Of a stretch of DNA of 54,234 nucleotides, positions 4,515-18,656 are shown piece after piece. Source of the stretch: an uncultured Bdellovibrionales bacterium (GTDB taxonomy: Bacteria; Bdellovibrionota_C; UBA2361; SZUA-149). Made by a program: the position numbers and the translations under genes. Positions within the stretch are counted from its first letter, which is position 1. Each line of letters starts with the position of its first letter. The stretch is from the NCBI GenBank assembly GCA_965366815.1, contig CBDUGV010000005.1:1-54234 (forward strand), read 5' to 3'. The notes beneath the pieces are model-generated. The model did not search any database. It had not been told where the DNA came from and saw nothing but the letters and a program-made list of their open reading frames with translations.

Positions 4515-7500
4515 CTAATCAACGCTGTAGAGCTTGCCCGCATCGTTGAGATACATATTCCGCATCTCGTCTGCGTTAAAGGGGCGCGATCCAATTCGTC
4601 CAAGCACCGCTATTTGGTTTCCAGTTTCGTCGACTGCTCGATCTCGATCGAGGGGTTTAGAAATCGACATTGCTGGTCCCGTGGTATCTCTCCAGGCGAT
4701 CAGTTTTGGCTTCGGCTCCGGCGAGTATCCGTAATACGTGGGCACTCGCTCTGGATCAGTCAGCTGTATGATCTTCAGACCGTTCTCGCCATCAGCGAGA
4801 TAGGCAAACAGACTCGCATTGGTGGTCGCAATCTTCACATCGTTCAAGTCATTGATGGAGCCGCCAGCAGTATACTTCATGTAGATGCGAGGCTTGTCTG
4901 CCTTCTCAATGTCGACGATAACCAGTCCTTGCTTCCCACCCGCAACGTAGGCGTAGGTTCTCGCAACGTAGACTCCCCGTGCATCTGGAAGCGGAATTGT
5001 CGATTCTGCGATATGCGTTGGATTATCGACATCTGTGATATCCACGACATGCAAGCCACGAGCATCAACCACATAGGCGAAACGGAACTGTACTGCCACT
5101 GAACGAACCTGCTTAAATGGCAACGTCGCTCGGACCTTTGGTCGAAGTGGTTTATCCAAATCGAGAATAACTAACTTATTCTCTGTCCCTACGAAGGCAT
5201 TCGTTCCGGCCAATTGGATATGAGTCGCACCTGCTAAGACACCTTTCTCATTCCAAGTCATCGCACGCTCGAAGAAGTTGTTCCGACGATCCCCGTCTTG
5301 TAGGGTGTCGACGTTAACCGCGATAAGCCCTTCTTCATAATCAGTGATGAACGCGTAATGGAAAATCTTGTGCATTGGCGTCTCGAGATTCTCCGGCAAC
5401 TGCTCTTTAAATGGAGCAACTGGTTGGTTCGTCGGAAGCGCAAATGAAGTCGCGTTCTTCGTGTCAATGTGCGTGTCGTGCCCGAGCGGCGAGAATGGTG
5501 CGGTCACCGATCGTTCCGAGAAGCCTTTGTTCGCAATATTTGCGACATCGTAGGCTCTAAAACCACCGGTCCCCTCCGTGGCATAGAGGTATTCCCCTCG
5601 TAGCTGAACGGTATTGATCGCAGCACTCTGTAAGAACTTCGGAATGATTCCAACACCGACACCGTGATGTCTGCTCACTTGCAGCTCTTTCTCGCGTCCT
5701 TCGTGCTCAGCATACCAATCTGGATAGGCGTACTTGTGGAGGTAGCTTCCAATAACCGCCTGTGGTTCCTCCCACTCGGTCACCTGGATTGCCTCAAAGC
5801 CGTCGTCACCAGTCCCAACATAGGCGTGATATCCCATGAAGTTTACAAAGTTAGTACCTTGAAGCAACAGCTGCGCCATAATCGCGTTGTTGTCGTTCTT
5901 TTTAGAAACGTGGCAATCCGAGCACTGCTTCGTTTCCGTTGTACGAACGGTATGCGGGAAGTGCGGTGCAAACGCTTGAGAGCTATATCCAGCAGCTGAG
6001 GTTGGTGGCTGCTGCACGTAGATTTTCTGTCGATTAATGTCTTGCGAACTCAACACGAGAGCACTCGAGGATCGAATCGGTACAATCTTGCCGTCCTTCG
6101 CTGGACCATGTCGCCCAATCTGAAACATCTGATCCCGCGCAACCTGTGGGTTATAAGTCGCCCAGTTACGGGTCTGCTTCCCATCGTAGTGCTTCGTCTC
6201 TGACTTCCAGTTTGCTTGAATCGGCAAGTGACAACCACCACAACTAGTTGTCCACGAAGTGTGACAGGTGAAACAAGCCATGTCTTCATTGCCGTGTGCC
6301 AGATTGCTTGAGGCTTCACCCACGCCCGCAAAACTAGGTCTGGTCTGATCCGGACCGAGTTTCTTGGTCAGCTTGTGCTGGGCCGCCTTCGGATTGTAAT
6401 CCCTAGAACCCGGCGTCACGACGTCACGCACCTGCTTCACTCGCCACTTCAGCTTCTCATCAAGATGGGAGCGCTGAAACAATTCCCCGCCGATCCAGGT
6501 AAAAGTTGGGTCGCCAAACGGAGTGCGCATCAAACTCAGATCTTCGCCACCATTGCTCCCCGCAGCAGGGCCTGATGTCTTGAGACTGGCGCGCTTAGAG
6601 ACCGTACCATGACAATCCTTACAGCCGATCTGCACTTGCTGTGCAACTTCGCCGTATATATTTCCATCACCATGATTATCCTGTGAGAAGTGGCAATCAG
6701 CACAGTGCATTCCCTTCTCGGCGTGGATATCCATCATGTGAACAGCTTTCTCGAATTTCTTCGGATCATCATGTGAGACCTGACGCCCCTTTCCATCGAG
6801 CAAATTACCCTTGCGGTCTTTCTTGAAGATCGCTCGGAAGTTCCAACCGTGGCCATGATAGTCGGCAAACTGTGTGTTTTTTAGCTTTGGATTTAGCAGA
6901 GAAACGTCCTTGAGGAATTCCTTGTCGGTCCATAAGCCGCGCATTGCCGCTTCTTCGGGGTTGTGATTTATCGAGGCCCACTTCTCTTCGTGGGTTGGAT
7001 ACTTCTGCTCTTTTGGCCACATAAACGGCGCATCAGATTCGTAATCCCACATGATGTAGCCAAGATACGTATTTAGGAACATATTCGGTTGGTGCATATG
7101 ACAGATCATGCACTGCGAAGTCGGAATACCACGAGAGAACTCGTGTTTAATTGGGTGTCCAGACTCATCCTTCGGAATAGTCGGGTCTTTGGAATAGGAC
7201 TTACCGTCATTCCCATAAATCGCATAGGGGCCCGAAGCGTACCAGGTTCGGTCGTTCGCATACACCGTATGACAAGCGGTACAACCACTATTTCGATAAT
7301 CACCCGGATGATCGTTTGAACCCATCATTGACAAATGCGGGTCATTCAATCGTGTTTTATGAATATTGAGAACGGGAATTGCGATTCGCGATCCAGTCCC
7401 TTTACCTCGATTTGACTGAAGCACATCAGGCTTTCCGCCGAGTTCGAATACATTAGGATTTCCAATATCTGGGAACTGTGAGTCGACGTTCTTTCCGCCA

Positions 7501-17384: not shown

Positions 17385-18656
17385 GTGAACTCGAAACCAT
17401 TTATACTCTTTCAATTTGCGCTCTTGTTTACTGTCCAATTAGCGCATGGGGAAACGAAGTACGTCGGCTCTGCGACCTGTGCTTCCTCGAATTGCCACGG
17501 CAGCGTGTCGCCGCGAGCCGGAACGAATGTACTACAAAATGAATACACCACCTGGTATCGAAACGGTGCCCATGCCCAGGCCTGGAAGGTTCTCACCAAA
17601 AAAGAGTCGAAAATTATCGGAAAACATTTAGGCATTAAATCCCCCGAGAGTGATCCACTCTGTTTAAAGTGTCACGCGACCTATATTCCAAAGTCGGCGC
17701 AAGGTCCTCGATACCGACTCTCCGACGGTGTCGGTTGTGAATCCTGTCATGGCGCAGCCGAAAAGTACCTAAAGCCACACACCGCTCGAGACAGCAGTCA
17801 CAAAAAAAATGTTTCGCTCGGCTTGATCGACTTGGTTTCCCTTGAGAAACGAGCCCAAGTTTGTATGGACTGCCACCTCGGAACGGATAACCAAACCGTT
17901 AATCATCGTTTGATTGGTGCGGGGCATCCCCGTCTTACCTACGAGTTGGACACCTATGGTATTTTACAACCAAATCACTGGGAAGTTGACGCTGACTATG
18001 TGAAACGAAAGAGCGCCTATAATTCTGGACGTGCCTGGCTCGTAGGACAAATCCTCCGTGGAAGTGAGCTTGTTGAAGTAATGCAATCAGAGAAGCGTTC
18101 GAAATTTGGCGCCATGCCGGAGTTGAGTAATTACTATTGCTACAATTGTCACCACAGTCTCAAAGAGGACCAATGGAAGAAGAGAGCCTATGGTGGTCGA
18201 CCCGGCGAGTTGCATTTGAACGTCTCTTCAATCTTGATCGCGGCACAAGGCTTACGGCCTCTCGACAAAGGGCTGGCTGAGCAAATAGAACAAAAAGCGA
18301 ATGCACTGTCAGCTGCCCATGTGAAAGGCAACGACCGCGCAATTCTTGCAGAGTTGAAGTCACTTCTCGAAGGGAAAGCAATCGCTCTTGTCGCCAGCGG
18401 CAAATTTGACCAAGCGGTGGGCCGCCAGATGATGAAGAGCGTAGCAGCGTTTGCATCTCGCTCAGGAACAACGTACCCTTACGAAGTGGCAGAGCAATGC
18501 GCCATGGCGTTTTCCGCCTTATCAGCTACCGTAGATCCGGGCGGGAAAAAATATCAGAAAGGCATTGATGCAGTGTACGAAGCTCTGGGCGATGAGGAAG
18601 GATTTAATCCCTCCGGCTTTCGCAAAGCTTCAGCCGTTCTTCTAAAACAATTATAA
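17385..18656 (+). CDS. Exported pentaheme cytochrome c554-like protein
   Basis: Signal peptide ending AHG. YVGSATCASSNCHG (atypical CX4CH), CLKCH, GVGCESCHG, CMDCH and CYNCH; helical C-terminal domain. Confidence 0.85.
   Translation: MNSKPFILFQFALLFTVQLAHGETKYVGSATCASSNCHGSVSPRAGTNVLQNEYTTWYRNGAHAQAWKVLTKKESKIIGKHLGIKSPESDPLCLKCHATYIPKSAQGPRYRLSDGVGCESCHGAAEKYLKPHTARDSSHKKNVSLGLIDLVSLEKRAQVCMDCHLGTDNQTVNHRLIGAGHPRLTYELDTYGILQPNHWEVDADYVKRKSAYNSGRAWLVGQILRGSELVEVMQSEKRSKFGAMPELSNYYCYNCHHSLKEDQWKKRAYGGRPGELHLNVSSILIAAQGLRPLDKGLAEQIEQKANALSAAHVKGNDRAILAELKSLLEGKAIALVASGKFDQAVGRQMMKSVAAFASRSGTTYPYEVAEQCAMAFSALSATVDPGGKKYQKGIDAVYEALGDEEGFNPSGFRKASAVLLKQL

Follow-up and report, generated by a model that had tools for sequence, protein, structure and literature searches.

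A seven-gene multihaem cluster of an uncultured Bdellovibrionales bacterium as a candidate NAD(P)H-fed, cyclic-nucleotide-gated envelope redox system

What do 25 haem c sites, a cytoplasmic flavin and iron-sulfur protein and an outer-membrane barrel do together when they are encoded side by side, and would such a set pass electrons through the outer membrane or stop at its inner face? The question is raised by seven genes at positions 4515-18656 of a 54,234-nt stretch of DNA from an uncultured Bdellovibrionales bacterium (contig CBDUGV010000005.1, assembly GCA_965366815.1), the whole of which we call the window. In the list of open reading frames (ORFs), six of the genes are co-oriented on the minus strand (g1 to g6) and the seventh, g7, diverges on the plus strand. 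We propose, with moderate confidence, that they form a two-module envelope redox system that is fed by NAD(P)H and has an outer terminal enzyme. An earlier note made from the letters of the window had described six co-oriented genes, a divergent pentahaem gene and 25 haem c motifs. The count is borne out as 24 CXXCH and 1 CX4CH motifs, of which g3 carries ten, g6 ten and g7 four plus the CX4CH, with zero of either motif in g1, g2, g4 and g5. The domains named in the note are likewise all present, as judged by Pfam and, for four iron-sulfur Cys motifs, by reading the sequence. The co-oriented genes are closely packed, with gaps of 2, 16 and 61 nt from g1 to g4, a 16-nt overlap between g4 and g5, and 10 nt between g5 and g6.

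The same genes occur together in other genomes of several phyla, as the earlier note had thought probable. One genome per species was scanned with the g6 profile, and 80 loci were kept for gene comparison; many of them end at contig ends, and full flanks (10 kb) were available at 40. By tblastn of the window proteins, matches were found at 80 of the 80 loci for g6, 78 for g5, 64 for g4, 63 for g3, 61 for g1, 58 for g2, and 52 for g7. The complete seven-gene set is present at 39 of the 80 loci and at 29 of the 40 with full flanks. Eight gene arrangements were observed, in which g4-g5-g6 and g2-g3 stay as blocks while g1 and g7 move, and where a g6 locus had no g1, a full-length g1 was located elsewhere in the genome (5 of 5). 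By record title, the kept loci come from Alpha-, Beta- and Gammaproteobacteria, Acidobacteriota, Nitrospira and Myxococcales, and include the cultured, non-pathogenic isolates Fontimonas sp., Zavarzinia sp. CC-PAN008, Sphingomonas caeni, two Qipengyuania, Sphingobium algorifonticola and Thermaurantiacus tibetensis. The family as a whole is large. At E≤0.001, at least 8000 proteins pass the g6 profile, and a g6 relative is encoded at at least 581 of the 599 pattern-matched stretches listed (one genome per species); the phyla among the g6-bearing stretches listed are Pseudomonadota, Nitrospirota, Acidobacteriota and Myxococcota, including cultured aerobes. The closest named relatives of g6 among the matches listed are proteins of Bdellovibrionales, Oligoflexia and Bdellovibrionota metagenome-assembled genomes (MAGs), all annotated "hypothetical".

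Within the class of the window's organism (41 genomes, its own included), g6 was found in 13 and g1 in 15; both are present in 13, g1 only in 2 (G005, 77% complete, and G017, 92%), g6 only in none, and neither in 26. These counts describe a pattern and are not a statistical test, as the genomes are kin and not independent. In three regions from other families of the class, gene content and gene order are the same. The haem sites are also kept: homologues have ten CXXCH in 49 of 51 cases for g3 and 70 of 71 for g6, and four in 44 of 44 for g7. Compared with loci outside Bdellovibrionota, median identities are 56% for g6, 44% for g1, 41% for g5, 37% for g4, 34% for g7, 33% for g2 and 28% for g3. 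The recurrence of motif counts and gene set across phyla places the observation far beyond chance. The limits of the system are also defined by this comparison. All-against-all clustering of ORFs from 82 loci yielded no additional family beyond 16 loci, and the biggest of these minor families were, by their coordinates, antisense ORFs over core genes. The genes that flank the cluster in the window, encoding a methyltransferase (g8), an ilvD-like protein and a 450-aa HEAT protein, were found at 0 of 80 loci. We therefore take the system to be these seven genes.

The gene g1 (14935..17295, minus strand) encodes a predicted cytoplasmic protein of 786 aa that joins an FAD/NAD(P)H oxidoreductase domain, tandem cyclic-nucleotide-binding (cNMP) domains and a four-cluster [4Fe-4S] part. 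Pfam assigned Pyr_redox_2/3, two cNMP_binding stretches (140.8 bits) and Fer4 families including PF13247. In a PDB profile search, the flavin domain matched YpdA/Bdr at 2e-40 and is like the thioredoxin reductase (TrxR)-type ferredoxin-NADP reductases (FNRs), the middle part matched the tandem cyclic-nucleotide-binding domains of PKA-R/PKG, and the C-terminal part matched the four-cluster ferredoxin HycB at 5e-26. Both dinucleotide motifs are present, and CxxC pairs occur only in the iron-sulfur part, so g1 is not a disulfide reductase. The four Cys motifs of that part (16 Cys) are invariant among homologues, and all three domain types (cNMP_binding, Pyr_redox and Fer4) are found in each of the 46 homologues. 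The phosphate-binding cassettes are conserved in both cNMP domains, with E413 and R422 each kept in 45 of 46 homologues in the first, and E539 in 44 and R548 in 46 of 46 in the second. Judged by this conserved Glu and Arg, both domains appear to hold functional cassettes. Elsewhere in the window's own genome, a 775-aa ORF (G000:C135:5864-6811; loci L102 and L106) has an N-terminal part 32% identical to the flavin domain of g1, and is a possible paralogue of that domain with a different C-terminal half.

The adjacent g2 (14096..14932, minus strand; 278 aa) is a five-helix inner-membrane protein and a putative di-haem b protein of the ferric-reductase/NOX-like kind. All 40 aligned sequences share H83, H97, H107, H256, H270, G121 and G124, and the pairs H83/H97 and H256/H270 both have the spacing HX13H. 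W252 does not vary either. At position 79, at least 90% of the sequences have W, and the window copy has T. The stretch S120-G121-x-x-G124 is present. In NOX enzymes, the His pairs of such HX13H motifs carry two stacked b haems. A variable loop of about 115 aa lies between helices 4 and 5 and, by the positive-inside rule, we read it as cytoplasmic. The ferric reductase domain PF01794 was not matched in the Pfam scan. Among language-model features of the ESM Atlas, the nearest clusters are those of "ferric reductase like transmembrane component" (0.97), which we use as a lead only. We also predicted a complex of g2 with two partners, the iron-sulfur residues 600-786 of g1 and an N-terminal piece of g3 (260 residues). 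It scored 0.52 and the best control 0.28, the runs agreed in at least 74% of contacts, and the partners had a predicted local distance difference test (pLDDT) of at least 70. Of 80 solved complexes, 58 reached the score mark for such complexes, as did 2 of 110 mismatched pairs; scores of 0.60 or below were obtained in only 7 of those 80. The prediction may thus lift the probability of the inner module slightly.

On the other side of the inner membrane, g3 (12331..14079, minus strand; 582 aa) would provide a periplasmic decahaem part of the c3/c7 type, joined by one transmembrane helix to an N-terminal FHA fold. It has no signal peptide, and its ten haem sites, invariant in 52 of 52 homologues, lie within about 420 residues (~40 aa per haem). 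Pfam matched the FHA family PF00498 at 50.9 bits (cut-off 20.7) and cytochrome c3/c7. FHA domains that read phosphothreonine bind the phosphate by conserved G-R, S-x-x-H and N-G residues. In the window copy GR, SLEH and NG are all present. Over the 52 homologues, these positions hold G in 49, R in 44, Ser in 6, H in 42 and N in 32; an FHA match was obtained for 37 and a YscD-like match for 40, and the region is absent in 3. Homologues without the N-terminal FHA region, recognised as ORFs of 436-458 aa or by alignment gaps, were seen at loci L134 and L135 and in rows L021, L032 and L096 of alignment A2, which argues that this part is dispensable in some lineages. MtrC/MtrF domain models were weakly matched by 17 of the 52 g3 homologues. 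The divergent gene g7 (17385..18656, plus strand) encodes a periplasmic pentahaem protein of 423 aa with a Sec signal. Its N-terminal part is like cytochrome c554, as indicated by the Pfam family Cytochrome_C554 and by a PDB profile match at 1.3e-7, and its CX4CH motif is invariant in 45 of 45 aligned homologues. Alignments A2-A7 were built only from ORFs of 0.85-1.3 times the median family length, with a few over-long or duplicate ORFs removed by hand; for alignment A1 (g6), 19 homologues were chosen.

The three remaining genes form the outer module. The product of g4 (10269..12269, minus strand; 666 aa) is a lipoprotein in which a signal peptide, a lipobox Cys and a Gly/Ser linker precede two GlcG/HbpS-like (DUF336) domains. 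The sequence LxxCGGG is kept in the consensus of 50 homologues. Pfam gave HbpS-like at 70.4 bits in three stretches, and the PDB profile search matched EfgA/GlcG, the PduO C-terminal domain and HbpS. Some members of this family bind haem or sense small molecules. The protein has zero His as well as zero CXXCH. The gene g5 (8290..10284, minus strand; 664 aa) starts with TTG, and its true start probably lies slightly further downstream. No Pfam family was matched, Alginate_exp PF13372 included, and NCBIfam gave no informative match. The AlphaFold2 (AF2) model, built on a 59-row alignment, has a mean pLDDT of 81.5 and shows 18 long strands (residues 173 to 650). An N-terminal stretch of about 140 aa, rich in Pro and Arg, is poorly modelled, and there is a conserved 70-aa insert (model residues 482-552). 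Foldseek placed AlgE at the top (E ~1e-16, TM-score 0.67-0.70 normalised to AlgE, 12-15% identity), followed by porins of 16-18 strands, and the Atlas lead was "alginate export". No MtrB chain was among the Foldseek matches listed (ranks up to 50). MtrB has 26 strands and sheathes MtrA. In comparison with these structures, the modelled g5 barrel appears too small to hold a cytochrome in that way, and the AlgE-like fold does not support electron passage across the outer membrane.

The largest protein is g6 (4515..8279, minus strand; 1254 aa), a Sec-exported decahaem domain fused to a C-terminal LVIVD beta-propeller. Its Sec signal has no lipobox Cys. Its ten haem sites occupy a stretch of about 800 residues (~80 aa per haem) that precedes the propeller, and Pfam matched LVIVD repeats and c3/c7. 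In the AF2 model (20-row alignment, mean pLDDT 60.6), the propeller is well modelled. Several enzyme identities were considered for g6. Foldseek matched only generic propellers, and no enzyme family was assigned from it. Nitrite reductase was rejected: the PDB profile gives only local similarity in haem packing to octahaem nitrite reductases (5e-5), NrfB, ActA and NrfA. Membership of ExtM/ExtN/ExtO was also rejected, the NCBIfam matches being local and reaching 68.5 bits against a cut-off of 800. The alignment has no conserved His or Cys in the propeller, so a metal or haem hub like that of NosZ or cd1 is unlikely. Sequence conservation may point to catalysis: the 56% identity of g6, against 28-44% for the other proteins, fits an enzyme better than a plain wire.

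The inner genes also occur apart from the outer ones. Among 151 sampled Nitrospiria genomes, the g3 family was found in 16 at E≤1e-15; of seven regions fetched, four held complete sets, two were ended by contig ends and one was reduced. The reduced form (L133; G175:C18:6001-26000, at ~6451-14487) consists of g1-g2-g3, a 197-aa Tll0287-like monohaem protein and then g7, without g4-g6, and g6 was not found when sought across that genome, whose completeness is not known. A second stand-alone g1-g2-g3 trio was seen in genome G027 (L143; G027:C1:2510001-2530000, at ~9766-14630), 59%, 47% and 41% identical to the window's proteins. Its neighbours encode a CHASE2-adenylate/guanylate cyclase and two FecR/TPR proteins, of which one is fused to a TonB-dependent-receptor-like barrel; no g4-g7 are nearby.

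Signalling genes are found near the cluster. A CHASE2-adenylate/guanylate cyclase gene stands beside core genes at 9 of 82 loci, and the same kind of cyclase is the one beside the trio of G027. Metallophos phosphoesterase genes occur at 11 of 82 loci and PP2C genes at 6 of 82. The Pfam family Metallophos includes cAMP phosphodiesterases. In six loci, all gammaproteobacterial (L030, L033, L035, L038, L052 and L096), the PP2C-type phosphatase gene is the next gene after g7. Five of these are represented in the g3 alignment, where L033, L035 and L038 have GS in place of GR, L030 has GR, and L096 has no FHA region. The earlier note had proposed that the system is gated by both second-messenger and phosphorylation signals. 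The first half of this proposal is supported by the cassette residues kept in 44-46 of 46 homologues and by the cyclase and phosphoesterase neighbours; phosphorylation read by the FHA part is doubtful as a family trait, given Ser in 6 of 52 homologues.

From this architecture we infer the cofactor loading, the protein contacts, the direction of flow and the gate as follows. Electrons would be taken by g1 from NAD(P)H onto FAD and passed through its four [4Fe-4S] clusters to g2, which would move them over the inner membrane on two stacked b haems, as in NOX, FRE and MsrQ. The membrane-anchored decahaem g3 would then conduct them across the periplasm, with g7 as a soluble periplasmic pentahaem shuttle. 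At the inner face of the outer membrane, g6 may act as the terminal redox enzyme together with g4 and g5, and the barrel would serve as a channel or anchor for substrate or product and not as a cytochrome sheath. We read g4-g5-g6 as such a terminal enzyme complex because the barrel has 18 strands and g6 is large and globular. The flow is most likely outward, since this direction would be favoured by the membrane potential and run downhill from NAD(P)H, and nothing in the cluster supplies energy for the reverse. The quinone pool would be bypassed, no energy would be conserved and reductant would be drained. For such a flow a tight cNMP gate would make sense, and the PKA-R-like tandem sensor between the FAD and iron-sulfur parts of g1 is the candidate gate. 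The earlier claim of a self-contained, quinone-independent haem chain fed by NAD(P)H is supported insofar as the architecture fits a path from NAD(P)H, FAD and iron-sulfur clusters to b haem and c haem, in which no quinol dehydrogenase is needed.

Several points weigh against this proposal. For g2, no Pfam or NCBIfam family was found at E≤0.01, and the best hit of the PDB profile search had an E of 0.31, with no ferric reductase domain protein among the results; the b-haem role is putative and draws on the motifs and the language-model lead. The complex prediction for g1, g2 and g3, with the verdict "weak support", is a weak pass. In g6, the haem part is poorly modelled, with pLDDT mostly below 60, so that no active site can be named, and there are 13 conserved His outside the motifs for 10 haems, a number equally compatible with the presence and with the absence of a five-coordinate catalytic haem. 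The direction of flow is argued from thermodynamics, and FNRs of the TrxR type run both ways. Finally, the inner module occurs without g6 in the reduced Nitrospiria locus and in the second trio of G027, so the two modules are not strictly obligate partners.

These points leave room for other readings, of which a true conduit across the outer membrane is the closest to the earlier note. Here g6, g4 or both would be exposed at the surface, g4-g5-g6 would correspond to MtrC-MtrB-MtrA, and electrons from NAD(P)H would reach extracellular Fe(III)/Mn(IV) minerals, humics or O2. The invariant block of lipoprotein, barrel and decahaem genes and a type II secretion ATPase gene near g7 at 5 of 82 loci speak for it, and so do the available parts of three papers: LVIVD propellers are called cell-surface associated in one (10.1101/2022.05.06.490989), and the authors of the related clusters PCC4 and ptd, described below, read those as porin-cytochrome complexes. 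The proteins themselves argue otherwise. An 18-strand barrel whose best matches are AlgE and 16-18-strand porins is unlike MtrB, a globular g6 with its haems so widely spaced and a Sec signal without lipobox does not resemble a thin wire, and g4 can offer neither a c-haem motif nor a His. The Mtr-like wire through the outer membrane that the earlier note had envisaged is thus not supported by the barrel, and we consider a conduit of this kind unlikely. By record title, many of the listed carriers belong to groups of aerobic heterotrophs, for which classical anaerobic metal respiration would not be expected as the main role. A more speculative version, to which we give somewhat less credence still, keeps the gated outward flow and sees in the system a bacterial counterpart of the "burst" of eukaryotic NADPH oxidases and ferric reductases: gated by a second messenger and bypassing the respiratory chain, it would spend cytoplasmic NAD(P)H and send electrons over 2 b and 25 c haems to the cell edge, where the decahaem-propeller would, when called upon, generate reactive oxygen species or reduce metal or organic oxidants outside the cell. 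The carriers include aerobic heterotrophs as well as the predatory lineages Bdellovibrionota, Myxococcota and Lysobacterales.

The electrons might also run inward, from Fe(II), Mn(II) or a reduced nitrogen or sulfur compound oxidised by g6 to the iron-sulfur/FAD protein and on to NAD(P)+ or another cytoplasmic acceptor. The reversibility of TrxR-type FNRs and the presence of the family in Nitrospira and methanotroph MAGs would allow this, and inward flow from Fe(II) was proposed by the authors of related clusters in the portions of their papers available to us (PMC5566968; 10.64898/2026.01.22.701106). Against it stands the reasoning that inward transfer through a two-haem membrane protein opposes the membrane potential, and that high-potential donors cannot reduce NAD(P)+ via a passive wire. 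Many of the carriers listed are, by record title, Sphingomonadales, Caulobacterales, Burkholderiales and Lysobacterales, which we take to be aerobic heterotrophs not known as lithotrophs. Inward uptake is therefore improbable in our view. We think equally little of a device for redox sensing or for handling haem or iron, in which the task of g4 would be to bind or break down haem, or to detect a small molecule at the outer membrane, while the cytochromes supply few electrons or report the redox state to the cNMP and FHA parts. The kinship of g4 with HbpS/GlcG/EfgA/PduO-C, whose solved members are named, for example, extracellular haem-binding protein, fits such a device, as do the cyclase, phosphoesterase and PP2C genes that cluster with the system and the Tll0287-like monohaem protein that takes the place of the outer module in the reduced Nitrospiria locus. 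Twenty-five strictly conserved haem sites and four iron-sulfur clusters would, however, be a large investment for a sensor; the cNMP domains are inputs of g1 and not outputs, and no conserved transcription factor or kinase output was found, as families beyond the seven reached 16 of 82 loci at most.

How does the proposed two-module system relate to clusters already in print? PCC4, as far as the available text of He et al. 2017 describes it (PMC5566968), comprises a porin, three periplasmic cytochromes with 4, 5 and 10 CXXCH, a five-helix membrane protein, a PF13247 iron-sulfur gene upstream of the membrane protein gene, and other redox genes. Its carriers are iron oxidisers, Hyphomicrobium and marine bacteria, and electrons were suggested there to run inward to quinone. 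The "inner membrane protein" of PCC3/PCC4 has SGxxG and two WX3HX13H motifs and is likened there to ferric-reductase/NOX domains that bind two b haems in stacked fashion (PMC5566968). In the ptdABCDEFG cluster (10.1101/2023.11.21.568154), whose function the authors call "completely unknown", the FAD/NAD(P) oxidoreductase and the cNMP/iron-sulfur protein are two proteins, PtdC and PtdE, and PtdA is a pentahaem protein with a beta-sandwich, a relative of the cytochrome c552 of entry 5ZE8, according to the available part of that preprint. Like PCC4 and ptd as described in those parts, the window has a porin-type barrel, FAD/NAD(P) and cNMP-4Fe-4S parts, a five-helix protein with the motifs, and cytochromes with 4 (g7) and 10 (g3) CXXCH, a likeness by count and type only. 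It differs in that the FAD and cNMP/iron-sulfur proteins are fused in g1, and in that a PtdA-type pentahaem gene is absent from the cluster: 5ze8 is not among the g6 profile matches at E≤1, and its match to the g7 profile has an E of 0.007 and covers residues 106-143 only. It also has the decahaem-propeller g6 and the double GlcG/HbpS lipoprotein g4, neither of which is mentioned in the available text of the two papers. When a ptd/PCC4 cluster was sought in Nitrospiria genomes, only the seven-gene form and the one reduced form were found.

A further relative is the trio of Ferrigenium straubiae (10.64898/2026.01.22.701106), which consists of an FHA-nonahaem cytochrome, a five-helix membrane protein and a [4Fe-4S] protein and was expressed under all conditions tested there. 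In the available part of that paper, FHA is stated to be previously unreported with multihaem cytochromes, and the membrane protein is not recognised as redox active. Likened by description, trio and window share the three-part inner-membrane layout with a cytosolic FHA part on a single-helix multihaem cytochrome. The window protein has ten haems in place of nine, the trio adjoins nirK, and no barrel, propeller cytochrome or GlcG-like lipoprotein is described for the trio in that part of the text. A putative kinship of the inner module to PCC4, ptd and the Ferrigenium trio is read from these published descriptions and from the g2 motif match. The comparison with PCC3/PCC4 that the earlier note suggested therefore agrees, by description, for the inner module and fails for the outer one. 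The note had also known of no functional description. As far as the available texts go, no tested function is indeed in print, although the related PCC4, ptd and FHA-nonahaem trio were already published. We found no paper on a decahaem-propeller with a GlcG/HbpS lipoprotein and a barrel, within a coverage that leaves out the member-genome supplements of PMC5566968 and of the ptd preprint, which may list it. By analogy, the seven-gene set would be a variant of a described but uncharacterised kind of cluster, with a different outer module.

Better-known systems share single features with the set. As in MtrCAB, PioAB and OmbB-OmaB-OmcB, the genes of multihaem cytochromes adjoin those of an outer-membrane barrel and a lipoprotein. 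Unlike in those conduits, the barrel is AlgE-like with 18 strands, the lipoprotein carries no haem c, the large globular g6 bears a propeller, and there is no quinol dehydrogenase, the input coming from a cytoplasmic flavo-iron-sulfur protein. Membership of the Mtr type was accordingly rejected on barrel size, on the lack of an extracellular multihaem lipoprotein (MtrC/OmcA-like) and on the lack of a decahaem of the MtrA/DmsE family, for which g3 scores 19.3 bits and g7 29.8 bits on TIGR03508 (DmsE/MtrA-type decahaem) against a cut-off of 192.2. With NOX, FRE and MsrQ the window shares a cytoplasmic NAD(P)H/flavin module and a membrane protein with two HX13H pairs on two helices, and NOX is, like the proposed system, regulated by signalling inputs. 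It departs from them in its separate polypeptides, in the four iron-sulfur clusters between flavin and membrane protein, in having five helices and not six, in the missing PF01794 match, and in an acceptor that would be a c-haem chain and not O2 or Fe(III) directly. The 18-strand fold of g5 has AlgE as its best Foldseek match, whereas the lack of an Alginate_exp match, the N-terminal stretch and the insert set it apart; no alginate or polysaccharide genes were among the recurrent neighbour families of the loci.

The remaining observations concern the setting of the cluster. The window is contig 5 of a 4.5-Mb assembly (416 contigs, 90% complete), in which the seven-gene cluster is single-copy, and the base composition of the cluster is indistinct from the rest of the window. 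The runs listed with window DNA are three DNA runs of one marine metagenome study, two of which may be the source of this DNA, with no RNA run among them. The divergent genes g1 and g7 are separated by an 89-nt intergenic region (17296..17384, from the ORF coordinates) that presumably holds their promoters; a scan of 4000-19800 for consensus promoters and terminators stayed below chance (promoters, 10 found and 14.1 expected), and we assign no promoter from it. At eight loci (L026, L027, L029, L036, L048, L053, L056 and L058), an ORF family of 137-217 aa lies between g3 and g4, where the window has the 61-nt gap, and the one member tested had no Pfam match. Cytochrome c maturation genes, encoding CycH/CcmH-like TPR proteins, adjoin the cluster at 12 of 82 loci (L021-L025, L047, L096, L062, L079, L083, L088 and L095), which fits its heavy haem c load. 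In the window, the S-adenosylmethionine-dependent methyltransferase gene g8 (18668-19558, plus strand) starts 12 nt past g7; it was found at 0 of 80 related loci and is probably outside the system. A Ser/Thr protein kinase gene (2-2254, plus strand, open at the window start) lies 2.3 kb beyond g6; the central part of its product is long, acidic and of low complexity, and the C-terminal part gives a weak OmpH-like match. Within 12 kb of the cluster are also genes for a PAS hybrid histidine kinase with a receiver domain (21567-23741, plus strand) and for uroporphyrinogen-III synthase, HemD (28927-29700, minus strand), the latter in the vicinity of 25 haem c sites.

If the proposed two-module system is real, many aerobes would own a quinone-independent, cNMP-gated route for NAD(P)H electrons to the cell envelope. 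This would bear on extracellular redox reactions of aerobes that depend on NAD(P)H and still lack an explanation, on the function of PCC4 and ptd in iron oxidisers and in bacteria of oxygen-deficient zones, and on how haem wires are switched on and off. The family is large, strongly conserved and present in culturable aerobes, and the cultured carriers open the proposal to direct test.

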